Of a stretch of 59,321 nucleotides of DNA, positions 1,824 to 43,575 are shown in pieces. The notes under the pieces were generated by a model. That model ran no database searches. It was not told the origin of the DNA and was given only the letters and a program-made list of their open reading frames with translations. Position numbers and translations under genes: made by a program. Origin of the DNA: a virus; IMG/VR virus record IMGVR_UViG_3300022719_000028, positions 1 through 59,321 of that record. One strand, given 5' to 3'. Within the stretch, counting starts at the first letter, position 1; every line of letters starts with the position of its first letter.

Positions 1824-2592
1824 TTGCCTATGCCCAACGTTCAGACGGCCGAAAGCCGTTGCGAATGCGGTTGCCTGTTTTTTGATGCAAGATTTTGAGG
1901 ATTCCGAATTGATCGTTTTCGATGATGAAGGCGATTTCATTCCGGGAGTTATCGCGGGCCGCGTAAAAGTTGTTTCGATTCCGTTTCGGTTTCGTTCGCT
2001 TCCGGAAAAGTTCAATGCGTGCGCCGGGCTGGCAAGCGGCGATTCTGAATTTCTAATCGTTTGGGAAGATGATGATGTGTATCTTCCAACGCATATCAAA
2101 AATCATGTTGACGTTTTGAGTTCAACGGCTGACATTTCAGTTACCGGAAAACTCTACGATGAAAAAGGCGATGCCGGAAACATTCGCGTTCGCGACAATA
2201 CGATTTCGTTTCATTCGGGTTGGGCATACCGGCGCGATTTCTTCGATTTGATTGATGGTTATCGAATCACAAAGGCGCTGAACTTCGATCAACAGACATT
2301 CAACAAATTCATTGAAAACGGCGCGGGGTTGGATTCAACGCCGGAAGCTTCGCATGTTTATACTTGGCTGACTTCCGGTTATACGAACGGATCCGCATTG
2401 CATGGGGAAAAGGCCGATTCGGGCGAATGGTGGGAAGCGGCCGGCCGGCTGGATTACAACGACAAGCCGGAAGGGCCGATCAAACTTGAACCGAAACTTT
2501 CGGAACAATCTGAAACAATCTTTTCCGAGTTGTTCCCGAAACATCTGGAAAAATTTCAGAATAAAAATAAAAAAAGTGAATTCAGTTATTGA
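1810..2592 (+). CDS. family-2 (GT-A) glycosyltransferase
   Basis: VSCLCPTFRRPKAV...SELIVFDDEGD and WEDDDVY (DxD). ATG 1810 is preferred to 1765 because it abuts the end of the upstream gene. Confidence 0.75.
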   Translation: MPKVSCLCPTFRRPKAVANAVACFLMQDFEDSELIVFDDEGDFIPGVIAGRVKVVSIPFRFRSLPEKFNACAGLASGDSEFLIVWEDDDVYLPTHIKNHVDVLSSTADISVTGKLYDEKGDAGNIRVRDNTISFHSGWAYRRDFFDLIDGYRITKALNFDQQTFNKFIENGAGLDSTPEASHVYTWLTSGYTNGSALHGEKADSGEWWEAAGRLDYNDKPEGPIKLEPKLSEQSETIFSELFPKHLEKFQNKNKKSEFSY

Positions 2593-2680
2593 CGGGGCCG
2601 ATTATTGTGATATCATTTAAGCATGAACGGAAGGCAAGGCCGTTCGATATCACTTACTCAATTCTGAAAGGCACGGAACT
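2576..2680 (+). promoter_or_regulatory. early promoter/operator/leader cassette, copy 1
   Basis: Dyad TGAATTCA 2577-2584. -35 TTGACG 2589-2594, 16-nt spacer, TGA-TATCAT extended -10 2608-2616 (contains TGATATCA). Leader hairpin GAACGG/CCGTTC 2625-2645 with loop AAGGCAAGG. GAAAGGCACGGAAC before ATG 2681. Confidence 0.7.
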
Positions 2681-2878
2681 ATGCGTTGGATTATTCAAAG
2701 CGAACCTCACAAAAGCGGAACTCGTTGGGAAGGGAATGTTGTTGTTGTTCGCGGCGGCGGCGACTATCGGATCCCGGTTCAACATTGCGAACTTGTGGAA
2801 ATGAGTTTGCGGCTTCACGGGCGCGTTTTTGGAAGTTACTTGGAAACCGTTCGCGATTTAATGCTTGCGGGATTCTGA
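2681..2878 (+). CDS. hypothetical early protein (65 aa)
   Basis: First ORF after cassette promoter 1. GAAAGG RBS 9 nt upstream. Followed directly by an intrinsic terminator. Confidence 0.6.
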   Translation: MRWIIQSEPHKSGTRWEGNVVVVRGGGDYRIPVQHCELVEMSLRLHGRVFGSYLETVRDLMLAGF

Positions 2879-2884
2879 AACAAC

Positions 2885-2916
2885 GCGGGCCGTCAAACCG
2901 GCGGCCCGTTTTTTTC
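2885..2916 (+). terminator. intrinsic terminator
   Basis: GGGCCG 2887-2892 / CGGCCC 2902-2907, then T7 2909-2915. Part of a ~65-nt module repeated at 4532 and 26966. Confidence 0.75.
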
Positions 2917-2938
2917 TTCAACTGAAAGGCAAGGCAAG

Positions 2939-3955
2939 ATGAAGATCAAACAAAATTCAACCGACATTCCGAACAACATCATTCGCAAGGCGTGCGCGTT
3001 CGTTGCGGGCGAACTGGAAAATTTCAGTTTGAAAGATGTTCGCGTTCTGAAAGTCAAGAACACAAAGCGGCGATTCACCGGTTACGCTTATTATGATGGG
3101 CATGAAGTTGTTATTCGTATCGGGCCGGCAAATCATTTCCCTGTTGAAAGCAAACGACTCGGCGTGAAATTCAGAGTTGAATCGCGCGTTGAAGGATTGG
3201 TTGCAATCATCGCGCATGAATTCGGTCACGTTTGGCAAGGCAAGAAACATCAAACAAGCCGGCGGCCCGGAACTTCGCAAGAGGTTGAACGGCAATGCGA
3301 ACGATTTGAAAAATTGATCCTGAAAGCATTCCGCGAACGCTCGGAAGAATTCCTTGAAGCTTGGGGCATCGGCCCGGATTGCAAACCAAAGGCCGAACCG
3401 GAAGCGCCGGTTTCTGATATCGTTGCCGAACGGGCGGCGAATGTTGAATCAAAGGTTGCCGAATGGGAAGCCGAGATTGTGAAACGCGAACGGGCGTTGA
3501 AGCGGGCAAAGAAAACGTTGACGAAATGGAAAGCGAAACGCCGATACTACCAAAAGAAACTTTCGGAACCGGGCCGGCAACTTGCGGCGAAGGGAAGCAA
3601 ACCGCGAAAACTGAAACCGGAAACGGTTTTGAAAAACAAGATCGCAAAGTTCATTCGGCTTTACCTGCGCGACCGATACGGCATTCAATCCGGAACGCAT
3701 GAACTTTCTTTTTCCGAGTTCATCAACCGGGAAGGCGAACCATGTTTGACGCGGCCCGCGCCGGATGTTGTTGAAGATCCGTTCGTTGATTTCTTTGAAT
3801 GGAAGGATATGAAAAAGCTGGTTGCGCTGGGCGATGTTCTGGAAGTTCACGCATACAATCGACGAACCGGCGAACGCGATGGAATGGGCGAAGATGTTCC
3901 GATCCCTGAAACCGAAGAAAAGCTTGAACAAGAAATTGAAAGGTTTGCGAAATGA
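2939..3955 (+). CDS. SprT-like HExxH zinc-metallopeptidase-like protein with charged coiled-coil C-terminal half
   Basis: RFTGYAYYDGHEVVIRIG ... LVAIIAHEFGHVWQ (HExxH). RBS GAAAGGCAAGGCAAG-ATG. Confidence 0.5.
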   Translation: MKIKQNSTDIPNNIIRKACAFVAGELENFSLKDVRVLKVKNTKRRFTGYAYYDGHEVVIRIGPANHFPVESKRLGVKFRVESRVEGLVAIIAHEFGHVWQGKKHQTSRRPGTSQEVERQCERFEKLILKAFRERSEEFLEAWGIGPDCKPKAEPEAPVSDIVAERAANVESKVAEWEAEIVKRERALKRAKKTLTKWKAKRRYYQKKLSEPGRQLAAKGSKPRKLKPETVLKNKIAKFIRLYLRDRYGIQSGTHELSFSEFINREGEPCLTRPAPDVVEDPFVDFFEWKDMKKLVALGDVLEVHAYNRRTGERDGMGEDVPIPETEEKLEQEIERFAK

Positions 3956-4200
3956 CGAGGCCACCGAAGAAACGATTGGCGGCGGAAAAACTTTTTGAAA
4001 CGTTGGCAACCGGGCCAATATCAATCGACGATATAACAAAAGGCCGTTCGCATTCCGAACCGGAACGGCTTCGCGAGAATTACGATCTTTGGTTTCGTTC
4101 TTGGGTACGCAATCAATTGATTGATTTGATTCCGCAACTATCGAAAGAAGCGGCGGAACGGATCGAAGAAAAACTTTCAGAAAAACAAAAAAAAGAGTGA
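3952..4200 (+). CDS. hypothetical protein (82 aa)
   Basis: ATGA start/stop overlap with the upstream gene. Its stop lies inside the cassette-2 dyad. Confidence 0.5.
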   Translation: MTRPPKKRLAAEKLFETLATGPISIDDITKGRSHSEPERLRENYDLWFRSWVRNQLIDLIPQLSKEAAERIEEKLSEKQKKE

Positions 4201-4298
4201 TATCAGAATTGACCGAACGCCGATAAGTGATATCATATAAACATCGACGGAAGGCAAGGCCGTCAAACATCACTCGAAACTTTGAAAGGCACGGAATT
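4197..4298 (+). promoter_or_regulatory. early promoter/operator/leader cassette, copy 2
   Basis: TGATATCA 4198-4205. -35 TTGACC 4209-4214. TATCAT 4231-4236 (TGATATCA 4228-4235). Hairpin GACGG/CCGTC 4246-4264 with loop AAGGCAAGG. GAAAGGCACGGAAT before ATG 4299. Confidence 0.7.
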
Positions 4299-4535
4299 AT
4301 GACAGTCACAAAAACAGTTGATATCAAAACCGATTTGATTGAAAGCTTGGTTGAGCTTCGCGAGAAGATGGAAGCCGGCAAAACAACGGATGCCGGATAC
4401 ATTCTTTCGGAAGTTCTCGATGCGGTTTCATCATCATCGGTTTCGGTTACTTGCGAACGGGTTGTTCGCGACGATAAGCAACCGGGCGCGTTGCCGGAAG
4501 GCGAAACCAACTACGCGGCATACAACATCGACTGA
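4299..4535 (+). CDS. hypothetical early protein (78 aa)
   Basis: An internal ATG of ORF 4227-4535 is chosen because the upstream part of that ORF is the promoter/leader. Canonical RBS spacing. Terminator follows. Confidence 0.6.
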   Translation: MTVTKTVDIKTDLIESLVELREKMEAGKTTDAGYILSEVLDAVSSSSVSVTCERVVRDDKQPGALPEGETNYAAYNID

Positions 4536-4540
4536 AACAA

Positions 4541-4570
4541 CGCGGGCCGTTTCGGCGGCCCGTTCTTTTC
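4541..4570 (+). terminator. intrinsic terminator
   Basis: GGGCCG 4544-4549 / CGGCCC 4556-4561 followed by a T-rich run. Confidence 0.7.
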
Positions 4571-4593
4571 TCTTATCACTGAAAGGCAAGGCA

Positions 4594-4920
4594 ATGAAGA
4601 ATCAAATCAAGGCATGCGGTTTGGAAGCAATCGAAATGATTTACGAAGGCGATACGGTTGCGGCGCATTCGATGGAATCGGAAAGCCGGGAATGCGAAGG
4701 CCCGCAAGCGAACTATGTTGTTGGGCAAGTTATGAAAACCGTTCAACCGGGCGAAGATCGCTTTTGCAAACATGCGGTTGAATGCTATCAAATCCGAATC
4801 ATGCTGGAAGTTAAAAAAGGCAAAACGAATTTTCGGCGTTCTGGTTTTCTTCATTATGTTCCGGTTAATGGAACAACCAACGTTTTCGGAAAGCCGAACA
4901 ACTTGGTTCATACGATCTGA
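4594..4920 (+). CDS. hypothetical early protein (108 aa)
   Basis: GAAAGGCAAGGCA-ATG RBS. The upstream part of ORF 4339-4920 overlaps the previous gene and a terminator. Confidence 0.6.
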   Translation: MKNQIKACGLEAIEMIYEGDTVAAHSMESESRECEGPQANYVVGQVMKTVQPGEDRFCKHAVECYQIRIMLEVKKGKTNFRRSGFLHYVPVNGTTNVFGKPNNLVHTI

Positions 4921-4927
4921 AACAACG

Positions 4928-4957
4928 CGGCCCGGAAACGGGCCGTTTCCTTTTTTT
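4928..4957 (+). terminator. intrinsic terminator
   Basis: CGGCCCG 4928-4934, GAAA loop, CGGGCCG 4939-4945, then TTTCCTTTTTTT. Confidence 0.75.
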
Positions 4958-4971
4958 GAAAGAACTATTCA

Positions 4972-5325
4972 ATGAATTACGATCCTGAAAAATTTGACTT
5001 TGGCGAACGCACGAATGAAGAAATTGCGGCGGCGGCTTTGGAAGTTGCCGAAGTGATGCGAAATCATTTCGGGCCGGATTGCAAGCCGGAACATATCGTT
5101 GGAATGTTGGCAATGATTGCGCTTCAATATCAAATGAATTGCGGAACGGGCGCGGATTCGCTTCATGCGATTATTCACAACGCCGGCGTTTGTTGGAACG
5201 CAATGTTGGAACATCAGGGTTTCATGGATCCGGACGAATCAACTCCGGGCTTCATGAATCCGGATGATGATGATGATGATGATGAACTTGGCGGCTTTGA
5301 TCGTCACGGATTTTCACAAAACTGA
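4972..5325 (+). CDS. hypothetical acidic protein (117 aa, C-terminal poly-Asp run)
   Basis: ORF with a GAAAGA RBS-like element. No family recognised. Confidence 0.55.
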   Translation: MNYDPEKFDFGERTNEEIAAAALEVAEVMRNHFGPDCKPEHIVGMLAMIALQYQMNCGTGADSLHAIIHNAGVCWNAMLEHQGFMDPDESTPGFMNPDDDDDDDELGGFDRHGFSQN

Positions 5326-5336
5326 AAGGCGGAAAA

Positions 5337-6005
5337 ATGGGAAGGCTAAAAAATGGCGCTTGCCGATGCGGGTTATCCTCAAAGATTCATTGCGTTGATT
5401 GCGGCAAGGGAAAGGCCGAAGCGAAAAAACTTTTCGTTCATCTTGGCGAATCCGGGCCGTTCGCTTCCGGGAAATTCATTGACGAACAAACGGAAGCAAT
5501 CGCGTTCAGCTATCCGAGAGGGCCGGCAACGGGCGCAATCTTTTCCGAATGCCGGAATCATCGGTTCGCGCTTTGGCGGATATGGGACAGACGAAAGCCG
5601 TTCGTTTGTTTCATCGGCTTGAATCCCTCGACGGCTGACGAAACCAAAAACGATAATACGGTTTCGCGTTGCGTTCGCTTCGCCGAAGATTTTGGCGGCG
5701 GCGGATTGGTTATGCTGAATGCGTTTTCATACCGGGCAACCGATCCGGAAGAAATGAAGCGGCAAGCCGTTCCGAATTTGATGGAAAATATCGATTGGAT
5801 TTCGGCGTTCGTTGGCTTGGCGGCGCTATCAGTTGCGGCTTGGGGAACGCATGGAACGTTCGCGAATCAAAGCGATTTCATTGCCTATCGAATGCGGAAG
5901 GATCTGCGAATGCTTCATTGTCTCGGAACGAACAAAGACGGAACGCCGAAACATCCGTTGTATTTGAAAGCCGATACGAAACCGGTTTTATGGTGCGAAC
6001 CGTAG
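5337..6005 (+). CDS. DUF1643-family protein with N-terminal Cys-rich extension
   Basis: NHRFALWRIWD..FVCFIGLNPSTADE..NDNTVSRCVRFA..GGLVMLNAFSYRATDP..WGTHG..LHCLGTNKDGTPKHPLYL matches the DUF1643 signature as I remember it. Confidence 0.7.
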   Translation: MGRLKNGACRCGLSSKIHCVDCGKGKAEAKKLFVHLGESGPFASGKFIDEQTEAIAFSYPRGPATGAIFSECRNHRFALWRIWDRRKPFVCFIGLNPSTADETKNDNTVSRCVRFAEDFGGGGLVMLNAFSYRATDPEEMKRQAVPNLMENIDWISAFVGLAALSVAAWGTHGTFANQSDFIAYRMRKDLRMLHCLGTNKDGTPKHPLYLKADTKPVLWCEP

Positions 6006-6087
6006 GAACGCGAAATTTCGATTCTGACGGCTTCGGGCGGTTCGGCGTAGGTTGAACCGTTTCGGGCCGTCAAAACGGCACGGCGCA

Positions 6088-6120
6088 ACGCTCCGGGATT
6101 TCTCCGGGGCGTTTTTCTTT
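6088..6120 (+). terminator. intrinsic terminator
   Basis: ACGCTCCGG 6088-6096 / CCGGGGCGT 6104-6112 (one G-U pair), then TTTTTCTTT. Confidence 0.65.
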
Positions 6121-6685
6121 GGGCGTTGCCTACAACCGGGCGGGCATCCGAAAAAGTTTATTTCAGTTTTTTATTTCGGCGGATCTATATTTTGTGGATG
6201 ACTCCCGCAAAAAACGGAAATGCACGGAAATTCCGGGAATTCAAACACAAGATATAGGGGTTGCCGGGCGGCCCGAATGGATCTGGTTGCGGTTTTGGGT
6301 ATTGAGGCCGGCGGAATGGATCCGATATCTTCGCAAACGCAACGAACGAAATTGAACCTTTCAGGCTTTCGCCGTATCCTGTTGATAACCGGCAAGCGCC
6401 GATTGGTTCACGTTCGTTGCAGTTCGTTGAATGGATACGCCGTTGCCGGTTTTTTCGTGCGCGGATATTCGTTGCAACGCGGCGTTGGGGCGAATGATTG
6501 CGAACGCCGTTACAAAGGAACCGCGCAATCAACGGCAATCGACCGAATGACGGGAACACGCAAGTTTTCGTTTTGGGGGGTAGGGGGGCTACGGCTTCTC
6601 TCCCTCATTCTGGGATCCGCAAGAGGGGTTTGATTCAAAGTTGAATGATTAAACTTGAAACTGAATTCACAAAAGGATCTAATCA
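6121..6685. other. 565-nt non-coding, highly structured region (candidate long leader/ncRNA or replication origin)
   Basis: Only Arg-rich, low-quality ORFs. Long hairpin 6339-6358/6405-6420. Hairpin 6480-6486/6503-6509. Five GATC sites. Shares 17-mer and 11-mer strings with the 13.5-kb non-coding segment. Confidence 0.55.
6571..6590 (+). promoter_or_regulatory. G-rich box TTTTGGGGGGTAGGGGGGCT upstream of the 6686 operon
   Basis: A near-copy CTTTGGGGGTATGGGGGCGGGTT lies at 32367-32389 upstream of the next long operon. Confidence 0.3.
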
Positions 6686-6892
6686 ATGAACCAACAAAGG
6701 CCGTTTTTGTATGGGAAAGTTAAGCGGGTTGATTGCTTTTGTGGAAAAACAACAATCCGGACAGTTAGAGGAAAAAGAGAAATAGAAATTTGCGACGGTT
6801 GCAAGCGCGACGTTCAACCGCATGAAATTTCGATTGACGATACCGGGCGAATGCTTCGGGAGTTGGACAAAAAAAACAAAGGCGCGGAATGA
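6686..6892 (+). CDS. small zinc-ribbon protein (68 aa)
   Basis: CFCG ... CDGC pairs. AAAGGA RBS. ATGA overlap with the next gene. Confidence 0.5.
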   Translation: MNQQRPFLYGKVKRVDCFCGKTTIRTVRGKREIEICDGCKRDVQPHEISIDDTGRMLRELDKKNKGAE

Positions 6893-7437
6893 ATCATCTG
6901 CCGGGATTGCGGAAAAAGTTCAAAACGATTTATGCGGATCCACCGTGGCAGTTCAACAACCGAACGGGCAAGGTAGCGCCGGAACATTCGCGGCTTCACC
7001 GTTATTCAACAATGACGTTCAACGAAATTTGCGAAATGCCGGTTGCGAATCATGCGGAAGAAAACGCGCATTTGTATCTTTGGATTCCGAACGCATTGTT
7101 GCCGGAAGGCTTGACCGTTCTTGACGAATGGGGATTTCGTTACGTTTCAAATCTTGTTTGGTTGAAGACTCGAAAAGACGGGCAACCGGACGGGCGCGGC
7201 GTTGGTTTTTACTTCCGGAATACAACCGAAATTTTATTGTTTGGAGTTCGCGGGAAATTGCGAACGCTTCAACCGGGGCGTTCTCAAGTCAACGCGATAA
7301 TGAAAGCGAAGCGGGAACATTCGCGCAAGCCGGATGAATTCTATGATTTGATTGAATCATGTTCGCCGGGGCCGTTTCTGGAATTGTTCGCGCGACACAA
7401 ACGGAAAGGCTGGCGGCAATGGGGCAACGAAATTTGA
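6889..7437 (+). CDS. MT-A70-family N6-adenine DNA methyltransferase
   Basis: IYADPPWQF (DPPW at 6937-6948), LYLW, EHSRKPDEFY. Confidence 0.85.
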   Translation: MNHLPGLRKKFKTIYADPPWQFNNRTGKVAPEHSRLHRYSTMTFNEICEMPVANHAEENAHLYLWIPNALLPEGLTVLDEWGFRYVSNLVWLKTRKDGQPDGRGVGFYFRNTTEILLFGVRGKLRTLQPGRSQVNAIMKAKREHSRKPDEFYDLIESCSPGPFLELFARHKRKGWRQWGNEI

Positions 7438-7976
7438 TCTTGCCGGAAGGGTTTGAATACACCGAAGCCGGGCATGTTGTAACGGAAATCGGTTTGCATA
7501 AACTTCAACTTGCGGCGAAAGCCGGCGTTGCAAGGCAAATCGAATCATATGCCAGAAAATCAAAACCGGCATACGGGGCCGATCATTCTTTGAATTGGCA
7601 AATCGCAATTGAAGGCGTTATTGGCGAATGGATTATTTCAAGAATGTTGGGCATCGAATGGCATGGCAAAGGCGTTCTTGGCGGCCCGGATGTTGGCGAA
7701 GATCTGGAAGTGAGAACATCAGCATACAACAACGGCCGTTTGATACTTCACCCGTTCGACGGGAAACGCGGCGATGATCCGAACCGAATCTTTTGGCTTG
7801 TTACAGGATCGCAACAAACATATTTTGTTCGGGGATGGATTCGGGCGGCTGACGGTCAACGTCAAGAATTCTGGACGAATCCAACGGGCAAAAAGGGGCG
7901 CGATGCGTTCTTTGTTCCGCAAAGCGAATTAAACTTGCCGGGAACTTTTGAGAGGGAAAAAGCAAATGCAATATGA
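7419..7976 (+). CDS. PD-(D/E)XK nuclease-like protein
   Basis: GGPDVGEDLEVRTS resembles the D...ExK/R core of restriction-fold/VRR-NUC nucleases. Overlaps the methyltransferase by 19 nt. Start is ambiguous (7359 or 7419). Confidence 0.4.
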   Translation: MGQRNLILPEGFEYTEAGHVVTEIGLHKLQLAAKAGVARQIESYARKSKPAYGADHSLNWQIAIEGVIGEWIISRMLGIEWHGKGVLGGPDVGEDLEVRTSAYNNGRLILHPFDGKRGDDPNRIFWLVTGSQQTYFVRGWIRAADGQRQEFWTNPTGKKGRDAFFVPQSELNLPGTFEREKANAI

Positions 7977-8148
7977 TCCGAATGAACCGTATCCGATGGA
8001 AGTGATTGATGCGGCCGTGAAACTTCGAAATGAAAAAGGTTGGGGCATGAAAAAGATTGCCCGCAAACTCAAAGTTGATGAAAGCAAATTGCGGCATGAT
8101 TATATGGAATTATTGATTCGCCAACGGGCGGCGGTTCAAGAAAAATGA
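7966..8148 (+). CDS. small helix-turn-helix protein
   Basis: GWGMKKIARKLKVDESKLRH resembles a resolvase/Hin-type HTH. Start 7948 or 7966. Confidence 0.45.
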   Translation: MQYDPNEPYPMEVIDAAVKLRNEKGWGMKKIARKLKVDESKLRHDYMELLIRQRAAVQEK

Positions 8149-8174
8149 TTTGAACTTTTTGAAAGGCTGACACA

Positions 8175-9023
8175 ATGGCAAATCCTCTAAAATGGCACGG
8201 CGGCAAAACGTATCTTGCCGGCGAAATCATCAAACGCTTTCCCGCGCATACGCGCTACGTTGAACCTTACTTCGGCGGCGGGGCCGTTCTCTTTGCAAAG
8301 CCGTTCGAAGGCGTTGCCGAGTATGCGAACGATCTGGATCTTGAGTTGATGAATTTTTGGCGCGTTCTGCAAAACGAATTTCTTGGGCCGTTGTTGATTC
8401 GGCGGTTGAACCTTGAACCGTTTTCAAAGCCGGGGTTCACGGTTGCAAATGCAAAATCGCAATATGCGGATCCGAATTCTTCGCCGGTTTTACGGGCGGC
8501 GAATTTCTTTGTTCGATACCGTCAAAGCCGGCAAGGCTTGGGGAAGGATTTCGCAACGCCAACATCGCGAACGCGGCGCGGAATGAACGAACAAGTTTCG
8601 GCATGGCTTTCGGCGGTTGATGGATTACCGGAAGCGGCGGAACGATTGCGACGGGTTGAAGTTCGCAACGAATCCGCGATTGATTGCATTACCGAACTCG
8701 ATTCGCCGGAAGCTTTGTTCTATCTGGATCCGCCATATCTTCCAGAAACTCGGAAAGCAAAAAAGACATACGGCGAATTTGAAGCAACGGTTGAACATCA
8801 TGAATTGCTTTTGAAAACGTTGGCGGGTATCAAAGGCAAATTCATTCTTTCCGGTTATCCTTCAACGATGTATCGAAAAGCGGCGAAGGCGAACAAATGG
8901 AAATGCGACAAAATAGAAATCGACAACAAAGCAAGTTCGGCGAAGAAAAAAGAAATCAAAACCGAATGCCTTTGGTTTAATTTCAGCCGGCGGGAATTCG
9001 GGAAGGGATTGAAAGCGGAATGA
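8175..9023 (+). CDS. Dam-type (D12 class) N6-adenine DNA methyltransferase
   Basis: KWHGGKTYLAGEI..YVEPYFGGGAVLF (SAM pocket) and FYLDPPY (DPPY at 8727-8738). RBS GAAAGGCTGACACA-ATG. Confidence 0.9.
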   Translation: MANPLKWHGGKTYLAGEIIKRFPAHTRYVEPYFGGGAVLFAKPFEGVAEYANDLDLELMNFWRVLQNEFLGPLLIRRLNLEPFSKPGFTVANAKSQYADPNSSPVLRAANFFVRYRQSRQGLGKDFATPTSRTRRGMNEQVSAWLSAVDGLPEAAERLRRVEVRNESAIDCITELDSPEALFYLDPPYLPETRKAKKTYGEFEATVEHHELLLKTLAGIKGKFILSGYPSTMYRKAAKANKWKCDKIEIDNKASSAKKKEIKTECLWFNFSRREFGKGLKAE

Positions 9024-9778
9024 GAATTTTGATAGTCGGCGCGCCGAAAACAGGAACAACGGCATTGATGGATTCAATCGCCGGAAGTTTAGGTTTCAAA
9101 TGGGAGTTCGAAAAAACCGATTGCGGTTCGGATAATCTTGTGAGAAAAATTCTATTTCATCAATTTGCGGATCGGATGATTGATGAATTTGATCGAATCA
9201 TTTTCACTTGCCGGGATCCTCGCGATAGGTTGATTTCGGCGTTTGTTTATTTCTTGGCGTTCGGGCCGGCAAACATGAAGGGGCCGTTCATCGCGCTTGA
9301 TCTTTTGCAGCGGAAAGAATTCGAACGCGAACTTCCGTTTCATATTTTGTTGCGGGAAGCTTCGCGGCATTGCTTTTTTCATTACTCGTTTTCTGAATTT
9401 GTTGATCGGGATTCGCTGGCGATGATTCGCCGGCATCGCGACAATCCGAAAGTTTGCGTTTTTCATTATCACGATTTAATCAAAACAAACTTTGAAACCG
9501 TTTCGGAGTTGATCGGAAAAAAGATCAAACCGTTTTCCGGGCATTGGTCGCCTATTGCATACCGGGCCGGCGGTTGTGAGTATTGGCGGCGATGGTTCAC
9601 GGAATCGGATCTTGATTATTTTACCGATATCGCGAACGATTGGGCGCGAACTTTTGGATTCGGTTTGGATTGGCGGCTTTCGGATGAAGGCGCGAACGCG
9701 GCGGAAGGATCTGAATGGTTCAAGATCGGCGCGAACAAATGGCGAAAGATAAACGGCGTTCCCGAACTGGAATTTTGA
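9020..9778 (+). CDS. sulfotransferase-family protein
   Basis: GAPKTGTTAL (5'-PSB loop, PKxGTT) and FTCRDPRDRLISAF (3'-PB, RDPxDRxxS). Confidence 0.7.
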   Translation: MRILIVGAPKTGTTALMDSIAGSLGFKWEFEKTDCGSDNLVRKILFHQFADRMIDEFDRIIFTCRDPRDRLISAFVYFLAFGPANMKGPFIALDLLQRKEFERELPFHILLREASRHCFFHYSFSEFVDRDSLAMIRRHRDNPKVCVFHYHDLIKTNFETVSELIGKKIKPFSGHWSPIAYRAGGCEYWRRWFTESDLDYFTDIANDWARTFGFGLDWRLSDEGANAAEGSEWFKIGANKWRKINGVPELEF

Positions 9779-9779
9779 A

Positions 9780-10568
9780 ATGAAAAAAGCGGCTTGCGTT
9801 TTCACGATTGTTCAAGATGAAAGTTTTTTCTTGCGGCTTTGGTTTGAACATTATCTTCAACATTTCGACGCAACCGATCTTTTTGTTATCGATCATAATT
9901 CCATCGAACCGGTTCAAGTTCCGGAAGGCGTGAACGTTATTCGGCTGGAATATGAAACATCGTGGGCGCATGATTGGCTTTGCGAGACGGTTGAAAACTT
10001 CAATCGTTTTTTGCTTGGAACTTATGAAACCGTTTTGTTCGCGGAAGCCGATGAATACTATATCGCGAATCCTCTTTTGACTTCGGCCGCAAAGCTTCCG
10101 GAAGTATTGAACGCGGAACATATCGCAAAGAAACCGGTTTTGCGTTCTCAGGGATTTGATATCGTTCAGATGGTCAACGAAGATCCGCCGGTCGATCCTT
10201 CAAAGCCGATGTTGGGGCAACGTCAATTGATGTTCGCTTCCGATGCCTATTGTAAGCCGTGCGCGGTTCGCGTTCCCGTTCGATGGAATTACGGCTTTCA
10301 TACTTTGAGATCTCGCGATATGGTTACGTTCGTTCCCGAATTGGTTCTTTGTCATTTTCATTACTTTGATGAAGACATTTTGAACGAACGGAACGCATTG
10401 CGGCTTGAACGCAAATGGTGCGAAAAAGCTTTATACGATAACCTCGGAAAACAAAACCGAAACAGTTGCACGGAAGTTCGGAAGGAATTTTTGGAATGGA
10501 AAAAAAAGCGAACAATCATGCGGCCGATTCCGGACGAATGGAAATCGTTGATTCCCGCGTTGCGATAG
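9780..10568 (+). CDS. GT-A glycosyltransferase (Glyco_tranf_2_4 / GT92-like)
   Basis: ACVFTIVQDESFFLRLWFEHYLQHFDATDLFVIDHNS and EADEYY motifs. Confidence 0.5.
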   Translation: MKKAACVFTIVQDESFFLRLWFEHYLQHFDATDLFVIDHNSIEPVQVPEGVNVIRLEYETSWAHDWLCETVENFNRFLLGTYETVLFAEADEYYIANPLLTSAAKLPEVLNAEHIAKKPVLRSQGFDIVQMVNEDPPVDPSKPMLGQRQLMFASDAYCKPCAVRVPVRWNYGFHTLRSRDMVTFVPELVLCHFHYFDEDILNERNALRLERKWCEKALYDNLGKQNRNSCTEVRKEFLEWKKKRTIMRPIPDEWKSLIPALR

Positions 10569-11566
10569 TTGTTCCGTCGAATCGCGTTGATGAAATGTGG
10601 AAGTTCAAAAGCGAATGGGAAAGCGAACACGCAACAATCTTTTGCGTTTGGGATAAGGAAACCAAGCCGGGCCGGTTTACAGATTCGAAAACATTCCGTT
10701 CAATTTCGCATCGCGAAATCAAAGAACAATACGGCGAAGTTTCAAAAATCTTTTCAACCAATGACGGCGGGATCCGCATCGCTGGATTCTTGGAAGCGGC
10801 GCGGGCCGGGGCCGAAGTGATTATTGTTTTAGATGATGATACGCGGCCGCATGGTAGCGTTGCCGATTTCATTGAAGGGCATTGCCAAAACTTACGCGGC
10901 GGATTCCCGCGTTGGATTTCGAGCGCTCCGGGAATTCATCAACGCGGCTTGCCGTATCTTCCGGATATAAAAATTCAAAGGCCCGTTCTTTTGTCCGTTG
11001 GATTATGGCAAGGCGTTCCGGATGTTGACACAATCGAAACGTTCGCGGCATTGCGCCGGAAAATATCGCTTCATTACATACCACCAAAGGGAACGCGCAT
11101 CGTTCCGGCCGGGCAACTGGTAACGCTTTCGGGCATGAACTTCGCTTTCCCTGTTGAGTTTCTACCGGCCGCGTTTTGGCCGAAGCAATCGTTGGAAACG
11201 TTTCAAAGATTTGACGACATTTGGGGCGGCTTCTCAATGCAACTAATCATTGAACAGTTCGGCGGAATTGTGACAACGGGCGAACCGTTCGTTTTGCACG
11301 AACGAAGATCCAGCGCATACGCGAACTTGAAAAAAGAAACGCGCGGCATCATTGCGCATGATGAAGTTTCGCAATTGATCGACGGTTTCGAGAGTCAAGA
11401 AACATCGATTGCAAGAACGGCGTTCGCGTTCGTTGAACATCTGAGAAGAAAAGCCGGAATGATGGATTCGGATGTTGCCGAATACGTCAAGCAATGGGCA
11501 ACGGACTTTGAAGCATGGCTTGAACTATGCAAAAAACTTTTCCAAAAACTTTCCAAAAAAGAATGA
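10538..11566 (+). CDS. GT75 / reversibly-glycosylated-polypeptide (RGP)-like protein
   Basis: VAIVVPSNRVDEMWKFKSEWESEH..IFCVWD and IIVLDDDTRP resemble the RGP/UDP-arabinopyranose-mutase family N-terminus and DDD motif. Start 10496 or 10538. Confidence 0.5.
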   Translation: MEIVDSRVAIVVPSNRVDEMWKFKSEWESEHATIFCVWDKETKPGRFTDSKTFRSISHREIKEQYGEVSKIFSTNDGGIRIAGFLEAARAGAEVIIVLDDDTRPHGSVADFIEGHCQNLRGGFPRWISSAPGIHQRGLPYLPDIKIQRPVLLSVGLWQGVPDVDTIETFAALRRKISLHYIPPKGTRIVPAGQLVTLSGMNFAFPVEFLPAAFWPKQSLETFQRFDDIWGGFSMQLIIEQFGGIVTTGEPFVLHERRSSAYANLKKETRGIIAHDEVSQLIDGFESQETSIARTAFAFVEHLRRKAGMMDSDVAEYVKQWATDFEAWLELCKKLFQKLSKKE

Positions 11567-11649
11567 TATCACATTGACGGGCGGCCGATAAGTGATATCA
11601 TACAGTTGTTGAAGGCAAGGCAACAAAACAAAACGAAAGGCACGGAATT
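11563..11649 (+). promoter_or_regulatory. early promoter/operator/leader cassette, copy 3
   Basis: TGATATCA 11564-11571. TTGACG 11574-11579. TATCAT 11596-11601. Hairpin TTGTTG/CAACAA 11606-11626 with the same AAGGCAAGG loop. GAAAGGCACGGAAT before ATG 11650. Confidence 0.7.
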
Positions 11650-11877
11650 ATGTTTTATATGGTTGGCGGCAAAGTTCCCGTTCAGTACGAAACCGGATAC
11701 AAAGGTTTTCAATTCAAAGTTCTTGAAGTTGTTACAACCGAATCGGCTTCACTGGAAGGAATGAAAGCATACGTTGAACTCGGATACAAAGGCGTTTGCC
11801 GACGCATCGCAACCGCAAACGAATTCTTCGAATTCAGCGAAAACGGCGGCGAAAACTTAACTTTCCAAAAAGTTTGA
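11650..11877 (+). CDS. hypothetical early protein (75 aa)
   Basis: Sits between cassette promoters 3 and 4. Canonical RBS. Confidence 0.6.
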   Translation: MFYMVGGKVPVQYETGYKGFQFKVLEVVTTESASLEGMKAYVELGYKGVCRRIATANEFFEFSENGGENLTFQKV

Positions 11878-11883
11878 AAAAAA

Positions 11884-11971
11884 GTGATATCAGGATTGAC
11901 GGCGGGCCGATAAGTGATATCATATAAACATCTGGCAAACGGCAAGGCAAACAAACGAAAGGCACGGAAAG
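11884..11971 (+). promoter_or_regulatory. early promoter/operator/leader cassette, copy 4
   Basis: TGATATCA 11885-11892. TTGACG 11896-11901. TATCAT 11918-11923. The leader contains GGCAAGGCAA 11941-11950 but has no clean hairpin. Confidence 0.65.
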
Positions 11972-12280
11972 ATGAAAACGGCATTCAGCGAAACTCAAGA
12001 GTTCAAAAAAGTTCAGGCGCTCAAAGCGGCAATTGATTTCGTTCGCGACGAAACGAAAGAAATAACTTCGGACGGTTCGGATATGTCGCCGGAACTTTGC
12101 GTTGTTGAATTCAAAGTTTGTTTCGCTGGCGATGCAAATTCATTTTGCGTTGATTGGTTTCAAGGCGCTGTCACAATGGATCGCGGATTTGAAGGCCGGC
12201 CAACGATTCGCATGTTCGTTCAAACGACACGTTCGGGCGGCTTCTCAGTCAAACGCGAACGCATTAAATCAATGGCATGA
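11972..12280 (+). CDS. hypothetical early protein (102 aa)
   Basis: GAAAGGCACGGAAAG-ATG RBS. Confidence 0.6.
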   Translation: MKTAFSETQEFKKVQALKAAIDFVRDETKEITSDGSDMSPELCVVEFKVCFAGDANSFCVDWFQGAVTMDRGFEGRPTIRMFVQTTRSGGFSVKRERIKSMA

Positions 12281-12291
12281 AAGGCGCGGCA

Positions 12292-12585
12292 ATGACGGTT
12301 GAACTCAACAATCTTTTTGAATTTGAACTTCCGGAATCAATCACAATCAAAACAGGCAAGGCAATGAAACTTTCAAAAGAACAATACAAAGAAACGCTTT
12401 CGGGTTTGGGCGATGCGTTGAACTCTTTTCGTTCGGCGCGTGAACATGAACGCGAAGCGGAAGCGAAGCGGGTTCAATTCTGGATTGATGAATTGGAACC
12501 GGCGGAAATGAAACGCAAAGATCAACGTTTGATCGAAGCGGCAACTCGGAAAATCCGGGAAGCGCGAAAAGCAATTTCAAACTGA
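12292..12585 (+). CDS. hypothetical protein (97 aa, charged/helical)
   Basis: GAAAGGCGCGGCA-ATG places the start at 12292 rather than 12277. Confidence 0.55.
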   Translation: MTVELNNLFEFELPESITIKTGKAMKLSKEQYKETLSGLGDALNSFRSAREHEREAEAKRVQFWIDELEPAEMKRKDQRLIEAATRKIREARKAISN

Positions 12586-12598
12586 AAGGCACGGAAAG

Positions 12599-12940
12599 AT
12601 GATTGACAGAAACGCAAGAATCGTTCGGGCGATTGAAAAAAAGATCGTTCGAAACTTACTGGAAACGATGAAGGCCGAACATGGTTATTGGTTTCGGGTT
12701 TATGATCCGGAACCGGCAACAACGGCAACGCAAAACGTTGATGATGCGATGAACGCGATTTTTGCCGTTGACTCAGCAACCGTTCGTTTTACTGACAATC
12801 CCGAAAGCGGGTATCGCGGTTCGGTTTTGTTGGTTCTCGGAAATGACGGTTGGGATGTTATCTGCGATTATTCGGTTCGGCTTGAAGATGAAATGAAGCC
12901 GATCAACGAATTCGCCGACAACATCGAACAACATATTTGA
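12599..12940 (+). CDS. hypothetical protein (113 aa)
   Basis: GAAAGGCACGGAAAG-ATG RBS. Terminator follows. Confidence 0.6.
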   Translation: MIDRNARIVRAIEKKIVRNLLETMKAEHGYWFRVYDPEPATTATQNVDDAMNAIFAVDSATVRFTDNPESGYRGSVLLVLGNDGWDVICDYSVRLEDEMKPINEFADNIEQHI

Positions 12941-12947
12941 ACGAACG

Positions 12948-12975
12948 CGGCCCGGTTCGCCGGGCCGTTCTTTTA
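12948..12975 (+). terminator. intrinsic terminator
   Basis: CGGCCCGG 12948-12955, TTCG loop, CCGGGCCG 12960-12967, then TTCTTTT. Confidence 0.75.
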
Positions 12976-13006
12976 CTCTCGAATTTATTTTGAAAGGCTG
13001 GCAAAG

Positions 13007-13447
13007 ATGGACGGGCAAAACGGAACGCGAAAAACGCCGAACGTTATGACACAAGAAAACGCGATTGCAATGGCGGCGGCGGCGCTGGCGAATCAATCCG
13101 AAATCCGAAATCGCGCTTGGTTGAACGCGGCGGAAATCGGAAACTTCATTGCCGGTAAAGCGGGGATTGAACCGGATGATTTCAGACCGGCGGCGCATCA
13201 TGTTCACAAAATCTTGAAAGGCGTGAACATCGAATTCACGGCGTTAAACGTCAAGCAAACGGGCGGCGTTGAAACTCGCAAGCGAAACGCGGTTGCATCG
13301 GAACATCTGGATCTTCTCGCGGGGATGTTCAAGGCGTTGCCGAAGCAACAAAAAGAACAGGCCGATTTGTATTTTCGCGAACGCAACGGCGGGAAAGGCG
13401 TTGCCGAATTTCTCGGCATTTCTCAAGATACGCTTTTTCCGAATTGA
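13007..13447 (+). CDS. hypothetical protein (146 aa), possible C-terminal HTH
   Basis: GAAAGGCTGGCAAAG-ATG RBS. GKGVAEFLGISQDTLF looks HTH-like. Confidence 0.55.
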   Translation: MDGQNGTRKTPNVMTQENAIAMAAAALANQSEIRNRAWLNAAEIGNFIAGKAGIEPDDFRPAAHHVHKILKGVNIEFTALNVKQTGGVETRKRNAVASEHLDLLAGMFKALPKQQKEQADLYFRERNGGKGVAEFLGISQDTLFPN

Positions 13448-13459
13448 CAAACGGCAAGT

Positions 13460-13593
13460 TGACGGGAAGAATTGAAACCGTCAGCCGGCGGCGCTTGCCT
13501 TGCCAGAATAGCGCCGTTGCCGTTGCCGGAAGGGGGATTGCTTTGGGGATTCTATTTCCTCAACATTCCGTGCCTACCCTTCCGGCTTTTTTT
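13460..13593 (+). ncRNA. candidate anti-leader small RNA
   Basis: Three hairpins, the last a 10-bp stem 13525-13534/13577-13586 plus T7. Loops carry CTTGCCTTGCC (13494-13504) and CATTCCGTGCCT (13564-13575), exact reverse complements of the two conserved RBS leaders. No credible ORF. Confidence 0.45.
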
Positions 13594-13638
13594 CTGCGCT
13601 GGCGAAAAAGTTTATTTCAAAATCTTTTTGGTTTTTAT

Positions 13639-13746
13639 GTGAATTCACATTGACGGGCGGCCGATAAGTGATATCATTGGCGGCGTTGACAACAGGCGCG
13701 GAAGCCGAATTTCTTTATATGAATCTTTTACGAAAGGCGCGATGCA
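13639..13746 (+). promoter_or_regulatory. early promoter/operator cassette, copy 5 (drives the RHH-csrA-recombination operon)
   Basis: TGAATTCA 13640-13647. TTGACG 13650-13655. TATCAT 13672-13677 (TGATATCA 13669-13676). The leader differs from the other copies (GGCGCGGAAGCC). Confidence 0.65.
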
Positions 13747-14001
13747 ATGGCGAAAGGCCGGGACACAACAACGCTTCACACTCCGGAAGGCTATCTTTCG
13801 GCGGTTGATGAAAATCTTTTGATTGAAGGCGAAAGCCGGGGCGCATTCATCCAACGAATCCTTTGGTTGTTACTGACGGAACGGCTGGAAGTTATTCGCG
13901 ACGATGAAGGCGAAATCATCGACATACAAAAAACGGATCGGAAGCGTTTCAAAAATTATCCGGAACCATTAGTTCGGGGCCGGGCGAAAAAAACGAAGTG
14001 A
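13747..14001 (+). CDS. ribbon-helix-helix (CopG/Arc/MetJ-like) DNA-binding protein candidate
   Basis: TTTLHTPEGYLSAVDENLLIEGESRGAFIQRILWLLL fits a strand-helix-helix pattern. First gene behind promoter 5. Confidence 0.45.
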   Translation: MAKGRDTTTLHTPEGYLSAVDENLLIEGESRGAFIQRILWLLLTERLEVIRDDEGEIIDIQKTDRKRFKNYPEPLVRGRAKKTK

Positions 14002-14048
14002 GCGTTTCACTTTGAATTGATGGATTAGTTTTTTTGAAAGGGAATTCA

Positions 14049-14330
14049 ATGTTAGTTTTATCTCGAAAAGCGAATGAACGAATTTTGATCGGCGATGATG
14101 TTGAAATTGTTGTTGTTGAAGTTCGCGGCAAGCGGGTTCGGCTTGGCATCAAAGCGCCGGGCGAAACTCGGATCATTCGCGCAGAATTAAAGGCGGCTGA
14201 CAATGATGGAAACAATGACGAACTCGGAATTCAACCATTTGAAAAAGACGTTGAAGAAAACCGACAACGCGACAAAAACGATCTTCAACATGCGGAAGAT
14301 GATCGAACAGGCGTTGCCGGAAGATCTTGA
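14049..14330 (+). CDS. csrA: CsrA/RsmA-family RNA-binding translational regulator with acidic C-terminal extension
   Basis: MLVLSRKANERILIGDDVEIVVVEVRGKRVRLGIKAPGETRIIRAEL aligns residue by residue with canonical CsrA (E. coli MLILTRRVGETLMIGDEV..VRIGVNAPKEV.VHREEI). Confidence 0.85.
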   Translation: MLVLSRKANERILIGDDVEIVVVEVRGKRVRLGIKAPGETRIIRAELKAADNDGNNDELGIQPFEKDVEENRQRDKNDLQHAEDDRTGVAGRS

Positions 14331-14535
14331 CGAACTACGCGAAGCGGTCAAACATCATCGGATCCCGGTTGAAATCAAAACGGTTTCGCCGGGGCCGTTG
14401 AATCTTCCGTTCTATTACGAAGATCCGGTTTCGCGGGAATGCTTTCGCTTCCGGACGATCAAAGCGGCGGCGATTCATTGCAATCGTTTTTATGATGCCG
14501 TTAATCCGGAAGGGCAAAAGATAGTTGAAATCTGA
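14203..14535 (+). CDS. hypothetical protein (110 aa)
   Basis: AAAGGCGGCTGACA-ATG RBS of the common family. Overlaps the csrA tail by 128 nt in another frame. Confidence 0.5.
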   Translation: MMETMTNSEFNHLKKTLKKTDNATKTIFNMRKMIEQALPEDLDELREAVKHHRIPVEIKTVSPGPLNLPFYYEDPVSRECFRFRTIKAAAIHCNRFYDAVNPEGQKIVEI

Positions 14536-26684: not shown

Positions 26685-26768
26685 CGGACGGCCGATAAGT
26701 GATATCATATAAACATCGACGGAAGGCAAGGCCGTCAAGAACGAAACTCAAAACAAAGGCACGGAATC
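26681..26768 (+). promoter_or_regulatory. early promoter/leader cassette, copy 6
   Basis: TTGACG 26681-26686. TATCAT 26703-26708 (TGATATCA 26700-26707). Hairpin GACGG/CCGTC 26718-26736 with loop AAGGCAAGG. The distal dyad is absent. Confidence 0.65.
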
Positions 26769-26975: not shown

Positions 26976-27009
26976 GCGGGCCGTCAAGCCGGCGGCCCGT
27001 TTTTTTTTC
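26976..27009 (+). terminator. intrinsic terminator
   Basis: GGGCCG 26978-26983 / CGGCCC 26993-26998, then T9. Near-identical to 2885-2916. Confidence 0.75.
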
Positions 27010-27272: not shown

Positions 27273-27378
27273 GTGAATTCACATTGACGGCGGGCCGATA
27301 AGTGATATCATTAAAAATGTAAGGCGAACGGCAAGGCGATTCGCCAACAATCAAAACTTTTTTGAAAGGCACGGAACT
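27273..27378 (+). promoter_or_regulatory. early promoter/operator/leader cassette, copy 7
   Basis: TGAATTCA 27274-27281. TTGACG 27284-27289. TATCAT 27306-27311. Hairpin GGCGAA/TTCGCC 27323-27345 with loop CGGCAAGGCGA. Confidence 0.7.
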
Positions 27379-28540: not shown

Positions 28541-28965
28541 AGTTGATTCAAGAACTCGGAATTCGATTAAAGCGGGTTGCGGGAACGATGGATCCGAATC
28601 ATCCGGGCTGGAACGATTTAACTTCGGCATGGGCGATTTATCAAAAGTTGGCGGATGAATCGCCTTGCCGAATCGATTCAAAAAGGGATCTTGAAATGAA
28701 TACGCGGCTTCGATGTCAATTTGAATGGGTCAAAAGCGAATGCGATGCCGATGAATTCGTGATTCGCGATATTGGCCCGCACAACGTTTTCTTGACGGTC
28801 ACGAATGACGTTGAAGCCGTTGTTCGGTATTTGATCGAACTCGGCGAAATCGGCGATTCAAAGCCGGGCCGGCGTTTGTTCTATTACGATTCGGAAGGGT
28901 ATCGCGACGAAATCAACTTTTCGGGCGATGGGACGTTTTTAGGTTTTACAGTAGGGGAACGATAA
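28537..28965 (+). CDS. hypothetical protein (142 aa)
   Basis: ATGA start/stop overlap. Confidence 0.5.
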   Translation: MKLIQELGIRLKRVAGTMDPNHPGWNDLTSAWAIYQKLADESPCRIDSKRDLEMNTRLRCQFEWVKSECDADEFVIRDIGPHNVFLTVTNDVEAVVRYLIELGEIGDSKPGRRLFYYDSEGYRDEINFSGDGTFLGFTVGER

Positions 28966-39170: not shown

Positions 39171-39470
39171 ATGGCGCGACGGCGAAAGAAGAAAAAGTTC
39201 AGTTTGAAAGAAATGTTGCGGGCATGGATCGAACCGAAAGCGATGTTGCGTTATCGGTTGCGACGGGCCGAAGCCAAGCGGCGGGCGGCTGAAAATGCCT
39301 TGAAACTGAAAGAACAGGAAAACGCCGGGCTGCGAATTCAACTTGAAAGTTTTGTTGATTTCGTCGATGCTTTCGCATGGCGACAACGGGCGGCCGGGGC
39401 CGAAGATAAAACAATTGCCGAATCAATTAAAAAAGCCGGGGAGTTGGAACGCAAACAATCCCCGCAATGA
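39171..39470 (+). CDS. hypothetical basic coiled-coil protein (99 aa)
   Basis: MARRRKKKKF N-terminus. ATG 39171 follows the previous stop directly. Confidence 0.45.
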   Translation: MARRRKKKKFSLKEMLRAWIEPKAMLRYRLRRAEAKRRAAENALKLKEQENAGLRIQLESFVDFVDAFAWRQRAAGAEDKTIAESIKKAGELERKQSPQ

Positions 39471-43472: not shown

Positions 43473-43575
43473 GTGATATCAACTATTTACTTCGCCGATA
43501 AAAGTGATATCATTAAAACATCGACGGAAGGCAAGGCCGTCACAAACAAAACAACATTCTGAAAGGCACGGAATT
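43473..43575 (+). promoter_or_regulatory. early-type promoter/operator/leader cassette, copy 8 (inside the head module)
   Basis: TGATATCA 43474-43481. -35 TTTACT 43486-43491. TATCAT 43508-43513. Hairpin GACGG/CCGTC 43523-43541 with loop AAGGCAAGG. Confidence 0.65.

Follow-up and report, generated by a model that had tools for sequence, protein, structure and literature searches.

To our knowledge, trans-acting small RNAs (sRNAs) of phages with many targets among the phage's own transcripts are barely documented; the c4 RNA, the CI RNA of phage P4 and the sar RNA of phage P22 each address one operon. c4 pairs through its a' and b' segments with two target boxes, a2 and b2. In phages P1 and P7, these boxes are situated in the icd-ant leader (Citron and Schuster 1990, as cited in PMC8198154; Rfam family C4, RF01695). 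Contacts at two sites are also made by RNAIII of Staphylococcus aureus, which reaches the coa (and rot) mRNA at two distant positions through a Shine-Dalgarno-masking duplex and a loop-loop interaction (PMC2837412).

The window, i.e., the whole stretch of DNA analysed here, is a complete phage record of IMG/VR (59,321 bp) with direct terminal repeats; it carries all of its genes on the + strand and encodes a RecE/RecT recombination module, a terminase, a portal protein and a major head protein. tRNA genes are absent from the window, no Rfam family is matched in it at gathering score, and a megablast search with positions 2400-14400 gave zero matches among GenBank phages. Relatives were recovered at 70-87% protein identity and form two groups, namely clade B (several IMG/VR fragments and a 56.5-kb JGI contig) and clade C (short Logan contigs).

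The leaders of this phage carry a short conserved box, and an sRNA encoded on the same genome carries its complement. Like c4, this phage sRNA holds two separate, short, loop-displayed complements to two boxes on phage mRNA; the order from 5' to 3' is shared by complements and boxes, the ribosome site is covered by the downstream one of the two boxes, and the outcome that we infer is likewise a translational shut-off of phage genes. The two systems differ in several respects. Similarity in sequence or at the level of Rfam is absent (the C4 family is not among the weak matches at 13400-13700, nor among those at 4180-4320), one sRNA would here serve 7-9 promoter cassettes and two further ribosome-site families where c4 serves one operon, the upstream box is itself exposed by a hairpin loop right at the 5' end, and the sRNA has its own promoter instead of being processed from the target transcript. 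With RNAIII, the phage sRNA shares C/U-rich regulator loops that face G-rich mRNA motifs common to many targets, and among the characterised two-site systems that involve a loop-loop contact, RNAIII acting on the coa mRNA may be regarded as the closest analogue. Unlike the phage sRNA, RNAIII is a 514-nt bacterial regulator whose second site is located downstream in the coding region, whereas the site in the phage is at the 5' end and the interaction is a predicted one. In our view, the most fitting class for the box is two-site antisense control, of which it would be a variant.

A conserved box in the leaders of the promoter cassettes

Eight near-identical sigma-70-type promoters (TTGACN, 16 nt, TATCAT with an upstream TG) are present in the window and are flanked by short palindromes (Table 1). 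The products of the first genes of these cassettes have no informative family match. The cassette at 13669 is the sole box-less one in the window; it drives an operon that encodes a phage CsrA homologue, identified through a match of Pfam CsrA to the gene of the relatives, together with RecE/RecT.

Table 1. Positions in the window of the cassette promoters, leader hairpins, ribosome-site families and sRNA elements
Feature	Position	Strand	Remark
Extended -10 TGATATCAT of the cassette 2 promoter	4228-4236	+	TTGACN 16 nt upstream
Further extended -10 elements TGATATCAT (starts)	2608, 11593, 11915, 13669, 26700, 27303, 43505	+	each with TTGACN 16 nt upstream
Cassette 1 leader hairpin, GAACGG / loop AAGGCAAGG / CCGTTC	2625-2645	+	-7.6 kcal/mol; stem shared with clade B (L039:57-77) and clade C (L055)
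Cassette 2 leader hairpin, GACGG / AAGGCAAGG / CCGTC	4246-4264	+	-6.7 kcal/mol, 93% of the ensemble; starting point of the analysis
Cassette 3 leader hairpin, TTGTTG / AAGGCAAGG / CAACAA	11606-11626	+	predicted start G11608 inside the 5' arm
Cassette 4 box GGCAAGGCAA, stemless	11941-11950	+	-1.6 kcal/mol, z +0.4; 10-nt complement to the sRNA loop
Cassette 6 leader hairpin, GACGG / AAGGCAAGG / CCGTC	26718-26736	+	folds
Cassette 7 leader hairpin, GGCGAA / CGGCAAGGCGA / TTCGCC	27323-27345	+	-11.8 kcal/mol, z -3.25; same in clade B
Cassette 8 leader hairpin, GACGG / AAGGCAAGG / CCGTC	43523-43541	+	orthologous clade B cassette has a TTGTTG stem instead
Family 1 ribosome site AAAGGCACGGAAnn-ATG, first gene of cassette 2	4285-4298	+	
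Family 1 at the other box-bearing cassettes	2667, 11636, 11958, 26755, 27365, 43562	+	
Family 1 at internal genes	12585, 37886	+	box absent (genes 12599, 37897)
Family 2 ribosome site GAAAGGCAAGGCAAG-ATG	2928-2938, also 4585, 27021	+	contains the box
sRNA promoter, TTGACA, 17 nt, AAGAAT	13444-13472	+	clade B: TTGACA, 17 nt, AACAAT
sRNA hairpin 2, stem GGCGCT/AGCGCC, 14-nt loop TGCCTTGCCAGAAT (13496-13509) with (TTGCC)x2	13490-13515	+	
sRNA segment ATTCCGTGCCT, exact complement of family 1	13565-13575	+	clade B: TTCCGCGCC
sRNA terminator hairpin and T-run, arms GCCGGAAGGG / CCCTTCCGGC	13525-13593	+	one compensatory pair relative to clade B

When 15 distinct leaders from the three clades are aligned without gaps, the only invariant columns are A9 and G11-C18, which together spell A-GGCAAGGC. 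A sequence-only reading of this DNA had described an invariant loop; the part that is invariant is A-GGCAAGGC and not AAGGCAAGG. This box is a tandem of GGCAA-like pentamers, (GGCAA)(GGCAA-like), and is found in 18 of 20 promoter cassettes (7/8 in the window, 9/9 in clade B, 2/3 in clade C), always between about +5 and +20 relative to the predicted start, while the leader sequence around it has diverged freely to the point of complete difference. Two leader types read ACGGCAAGGC and thus lose the first AAGG; in cassette 4, a third GGCAA unit (CTGGCAA, 11932-11938) precedes the box. GGCAAGG is present in seven of the eight leaders of the window, which amount to about 440 nt in total, and its count on the + strand is 28, compared with 5-14 expected from a strand-specific Markov model. 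Seven of these copies are in leaders and three in ribosome sites; the other 18, among them 17 in coding sequence, occur at about the background rate. A conserved ATG, GTG or TTG that would open a leader peptide 5-10 nt after the box was not found. The pattern of conservation indicates that the box is a real, selected 5' RNA element, and nearly every predicted early transcript would begin with GGCAAGGC, usually shown in the loop of a small hairpin.

The six leader hairpins that the sequence-only reading had listed are all present. Folded alone, they reach -5.1 to -11.8 kcal/mol and adopt the expected stem with an open loop of 9-11 nt. Their single-sequence z-scores are modest (-1.0 to -3.3), and the case against chance therefore rests on the whole set of hairpins. 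With flanks randomised from the composition of the leaders, a stem of at least 5 bp encloses a fixed 7-mer in 0.5% of trials; such a stem encloses the box in four of the seven distinct leader types, which corresponds to a P of about 3e-8, or of about 3e-6 if GAACGG and GACGG are counted as one. The stems had been placed some 10 nt behind the transcription start; instead, five of them begin 3-7 nt after the predicted start, that of cassette 2 about 3 nt past the predicted 5' end at A4243, if transcription is taken to start at the customary distance of 7 nt from TATCAT, the -10 hexamer. The TTGTTG stem is a special case, as its 5' arm begins just 4 nt past the -10 hexamer (11601-11611) and the predicted start leaves 4 of its 6 pairs; either transcription starts unusually near the -10 element, or the palindrome is partly untranscribed. 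At the level of DNA, the palindrome of this hairpin extends to 7 bp in L011. A DNA operator as the reason for these palindromes was rejected, as their arms are wholly different between cassettes and yet self-complementary.

Three unrelated, perfectly complementary stems thus surround one box that is kept in three phage clades, which bears out the earlier view of an RNA-level element rather than a simple sequence duplication. As a structural unit, by contrast, the hairpin is not conserved, since it is absent from three box-bearing leader types: that of the 11915 cassette in the window, and those at 7310 and at 7652/9578/10407 in clade B, all of which are A/C-rich and unstructured. Nor do the compensatory stem changes, which do preserve pairing across the three stems, stem from stepwise double mutations; they reflect the replacement of whole leaders between cassettes. 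The cassette before the gene at 43576 (-10 at 43505) has a GACGG stem in the window and a TTGTTG stem in clade B, and the 11593 cassette, with TTGTTG in the window, has a clade B ortholog (L039 7310) in which the box is present and the stem is absent. Because orthologous cassettes differ in this way, only three independent stems underlie the covariation. A covariation statistic computed on the leader alignment exceeded all 500 column shuffles but was matched when the pairing partners were slid by +3 (0.332 against 0.305), so that this statistic is not clean. We consider the three independent stems enough to indicate selection for pairing, with no deep phylogenetic signal, and the hairpin to be a frequent but dispensable way to present the box.

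The 3' arm of the GACGG hairpin and its flank (GGCCGTCAAA/G; 4257-4269, 26729-26741) recur as a word in the 5' arm and loop of cassette terminators (2885-2909, 26976-27000). The two copies are identical, not complementary, and probably reflect a common ancestry of cassette parts.

The small RNA and its complements to the box and the ribosome sites

An sRNA of about 115 nt is encoded at 13477-13593 on the + strand and has its own promoter and terminator (13444-13593). Three families of ribosome sites (families 3, 2 and 1) have their complements in it, namely GTCAGCC, GCCTTGCC and ATTCCGTGCCT, respectively. The + strand has no further copy of CCGTGCC or GTCAGCC, and CCTTGCC has two sites on it only, one in the sRNA loop (13498) and one at 28663. 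A homologue was recovered from clade B (L039 9359-9500) in which the promoter is kept and the stem of hairpin 2 is fully replaced by CCGGGT/ACCCGG, which still pairs, around a 14-nt loop that is identical to that of the window. The segment directed against the ribosome site reads TTCCGTGCC in the window and TTCCGCGCC in clade B (L039 about 9474-9484), a T-to-C change that falls exactly where the family-1 targets change from A to G. The kept promoter, the covarying stems and the co-change of this segment with the ribosome sites argue that the sRNA is real. A pattern derived from its 3' half gave zero matches in IMG/VR, and in the JGI metagenomes it retrieved the known clade B contig and one chance match in a coding region. 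The neighbouring ORF at 13007-13447 has no homologue.

The general ribosome site of this phage is GAAAGGC, 7-9 nt before the start codon of more than 30 genes, and its tail falls into a few exact families. Family 1 follows the pattern GGCRCGGAA; its sites read GGCACGGAA throughout the window, but GGCGCGGAA throughout clades B and C (L039/L014/L055), a concerted change across at least nine unlinked family-1 sites. Family 2, GGCAAGGCA, includes the box itself. Family 3 reads GGCTGAC in the window and in clade B, and GGCTAAC in clade C (L049:900-940, 2530-2560, 3620-3654), from which one would predict GTTAGCC at the 5' end of the clade C sRNA. Box and family 1 occur together in all 18 box-bearing cassettes of the three clades, and the csrA-operon cassettes of the window (13669-13746) and of clade C (L049:1-110) have neither. 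Since the 13669 cassette lacks both, the csrA operon appears to be exempt from the control that the sRNA would exert through family 1 and the box.

The complementarity between the leader loop and the loop of hairpin 2, which the sequence-only reading had pointed out, extends over 8-11 contiguous nucleotides in every box-bearing leader, and both loops are predicted to be exposed. These are Watson-Crick matches to the hairpin 2 of the respective clade's own sRNA, in the window as well as in clade B; the box-less 13669 leader has five contiguous matches. A random 8-mer of leader composition would match the sRNA with P = 0.003 and the hairpin-2 loop with P = 0.00014. Duplex energies and opening energies were evaluated site by site, and full-length RNAduplex predictions of leader against sRNA were discarded on account of their unrealistically long duplexes. 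The predicted cost of opening is 0.87 kcal/mol for the sRNA loop GCCUUGCC and 0.2-1.1 kcal/mol for five of the seven leader boxes, the other two requiring 2.4 and 3.6 kcal/mol, and the duplex of box and loop is worth -11 (7 bp) to -16 (9 bp) kcal/mol. Compared with copies of the same 7-mer in coding sequence, the leader boxes are predicted to open more easily (median 2.0 versus 3.7 kcal/mol, one-sided P = 0.03). Part of the segment directed against family 1 is enclosed by the terminator hairpin, and its opening takes 3-4.4 kcal/mol. As for a partner of the box in cis, no complementary loop was found in the cassette terminators, and the two + strand copies of CCTTGCC are those given above.

Because the box is complementary to a conserved loop of the sRNA, we consider it most likely to be a docking site for this RNA rather than a free-standing structural element. 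More specifically, we assign a probability of roughly 45% to the reading in which the box is the exposed first contact, by way of a kissing loop, of a two-site target for the phage sRNA. The analysis thus strengthens the kissing-loop idea of the sequence-only reading without proving it. Neither the box nor the sRNA loop differs between the window and clade B, and in clade C the box is unchanged as well; with both partners invariant, it is the complementarity by itself that speaks for their pairing.

The analysis establishes the box with its hairpins, its complementarity to the sRNA loop, the accessibility predicted for both sequences, the reality of the sRNA and the joint change of sRNA and ribosome sites; from these we infer a pairing of box and loop, an order of events and a repressive outcome as follows. 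The functional unit would be the 5'-proximal box A-GGCAAGGC, held single-stranded either in a 9-11-nt loop or in an unstructured A/C-rich stretch, and the first gene of a cassette would bear a two-part target of which the box is the upstream half and the ribosome site GGCRCGGAA the downstream half. Both complements are contained in the sRNA, (UUGCC)x2 in the loop of hairpin 2 and UUCCGYGCC inside the terminator hairpin, and the two sites have the same 5'-to-3' order in sRNA and target. A fast kissing contact of 7-10 bp between two exposed loops (or between a loop and a single strand) would come first and would tether the sRNA to the mRNA; the less accessible 3' segment of the sRNA could, with this help, anneal to the ribosome site, which lies 20-38 nt downstream, and keep translation of the first gene from being initiated.

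Two observations complicate this picture. The sRNA loop is already accounted for by the three ribosome sites of family 2 that contain the box (2928, 4585, 27021), so that its complementarity to the leader boxes could be a by-product of their likeness to ribosome sites. Furthermore, the two internal family-1 genes at 12599 and 37897 have no box, and the box is therefore not required for the sRNA to reach family 1. The strictly promoter-proximal position of the box would also fit a function that is tied to the 5' end of the RNA or to early elongation, and the strong terminators behind the first gene or genes of box-bearing cassettes would suit an antitermination signal.

If the box is indeed the docking half of a two-site target, this phage would represent a compact natural case of genome-wide post-transcriptional control by a single viral sRNA, and the box a modular 5' tag travelling with its promoter cassette from locus to locus and from one related phage to another. 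The design combines an exposed loop of tandem repeats with a second site at the ribosome-binding region, and its targets and regulator change in concert; it could become a portable regulatory part. We raise only tentatively the further-reaching proposal that a (GGCAA)n tag, placed at the extreme 5' end of every cassette transcript, serves as an address label that zips onto the (UUGCC)2 loop of one master sRNA. Under that proposal, the other half of the code would lie in the three ribosome-site families, the 5' tag would determine the transcripts that the sRNA captures first, one RNA of 115 nt could shut off about twenty genes in at least eight operons together, and new cassettes consisting of promoter, tag, ribosome site, gene and terminator could be plugged in by recombination.

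Other functions considered for the box

The box might instead be a Shine-Dalgarno-like 5' element whose two AAGGC cores bind the 30S subunit without starting translation, thereby blocking 5'-dependent decay or serving as a standby site, with the hairpin adding 5' protection. An element of this kind is STAB-SD of the Bacillus thuringiensis cry3A transcript, a 5' mRNA stabiliser that is a full complement of the 16S 3' end, GAAAGGAGG (PMC4113751), and that, like the box, is a Shine-Dalgarno-like purine motif near the mRNA 5' end at which translation does not start. The box repeats the AAGGC core of the phage's general ribosome site, equals the tail of family 2, and lies some 5-20 nt from the predicted 5' end with no start codon after it, all of which would suit such a role. 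With a canonical CCUUUC tail at the 16S 3' end, the box would form 4-5 pairs, through its AAGG core only. We nevertheless regard a role of this kind as unlikely. GAAAGG, the phage's own Shine-Dalgarno head, is contained in no box and occurs in full in 0/7 leader types, two of which, those with ACGGCAAGGC, lack the first AAGG as well. The invariant positions of the box fit the complement of the sRNA better than that of the anti-Shine-Dalgarno sequence, and unlike STAB-SD, the box is an exact complement of a phage sRNA loop. A role in ribosome binding would also leave the strict co-occurrence of the box with family 1 unexplained.

The nut sites of phages lambda and P22, of which there are two, consist of a boxA and a boxB at which the N protein acts, the boxB loop being a GNRA-like one of 5 nt. 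By analogy, the box could be a protein site on nascent RNA, either a nut-like antitermination signal for the terminators behind the first genes or a site for the phage CsrA or another RNA-binding protein. Both elements are short, promoter-proximal hairpins with a sequence-specific loop and a variable stem, located upstream of terminators that have to be passed: strong terminators directly follow the first gene or genes of box-bearing cassettes (2885, 4542, 12947, 26976, 28281), and the box-less 13669 operon extends over about 12 kb without a strong terminator on the + strand. Clade B has, in front of its csrA operon, a module in which box and family 1 are joined by a small gene and a terminator. 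A homologue of CsrA is among the proteins of the phage, and the GACGG and GAACGG hairpins share the word ACGGAA with family 1. Several features render a protein site improbable in our view. Unlike structure-specific sites of the boxB type, the box does without its hairpin in three leader types; where present, the hairpin has a loop of 9-11 nt that does not resemble a GNRA-like pentaloop, and there are eight sites in place of two. Neither a boxA-like word (CGCTCTTA-like) in the A/C-rich spacers of the leaders nor a recognisable N-like early protein was found, and the products of the first genes have no informative family match. CsrA sites have a GGA core, which neither the box nor five of the seven leader types contain; where a leader does have it, it spans the junction of stem and loop in a GACGG or GAACGG hairpin, whereas family 1 does contain GGA. 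A scan for R/K-rich sequences found no early small protein with an N-terminal arginine-rich motif. The single N-terminus of this type belongs to a 99-aa ORF in the packaging region, between terminase and portal (39171-39470), which starts with MARRRKKKKF and is R/K-rich as in RNA-binding peptides.

It is very improbable that the leaders merely carry a generic protective hairpin of the ompA or papA type, with a functionless loop kept only through homogenising recombination between cassettes: stem-loops at the 5' terminus do make mRNA more stable in E. coli (Emory et al. 1992; Bouvet and Belasco 1992; both listed in PMC3997798), in five cases the stem begins 3-7 nt away from the predicted 5' end, and leaders are swapped between cassettes, but nine box positions are invariant in 15 distinct leaders of three clades amid free divergence, which exceeds what such a hairpin requires of its loop, the box persists where the stem is missing, and the predicted start cuts the TTGTTG stem to 4 bp.

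Should the box turn out to be a stabiliser or an antitermination signal, it would still be a conserved and hitherto undescribed 5' element from a lineage of uncultured phages.

Related phages and the distribution of the system

So far, the system of box and sRNA is confined to one rare lineage. A scan of IMG/VR for the combined pattern of promoter and family 1 produced one chance match in an AT-rich contig, and the terminase has no relative in GTDB genomes. Among sequencing runs, positions 11500-14400 turned up in one DNA run, probably that of the source sample, and in no RNA run. The 511-aa ATPase had no match in IMG/VR as a single query, and an alignment of it found only one contig that was already known. 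More distant relatives with 35-50% identity (L056, L057, L058, L060-L062) have no cassettes, no box and none of the ribosome-site families; they share the csrA-yqaJ-ATPase-recT module or a DUF932 gene with the window, their ribosome sites are ordinary GGAG or GAAAGGC with unrelated tails, and no sRNA was found in the DNA of theirs that was examined.

Within the lineage, the cassettes appear to behave as mobile units, to judge from the arrangement of their sequences. In clade B, an extra module of promoter, box, family 1, an 85-aa gene and a terminator precedes the csrA/recET operon (L039:10320-10780, compared with 13600-13750 in the window); both the window and clade C are without it.

The set of csrA, yqaJ exonuclease, SbcC-like ATPase and recT recurs in L056 and L057, which are NCBI MAG contigs, and in L058, with ATPases that are 35-50% identical. 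Since this gene set is found again in distant phage or prophage contigs, csrA seems to be a stable member of the recombination module.
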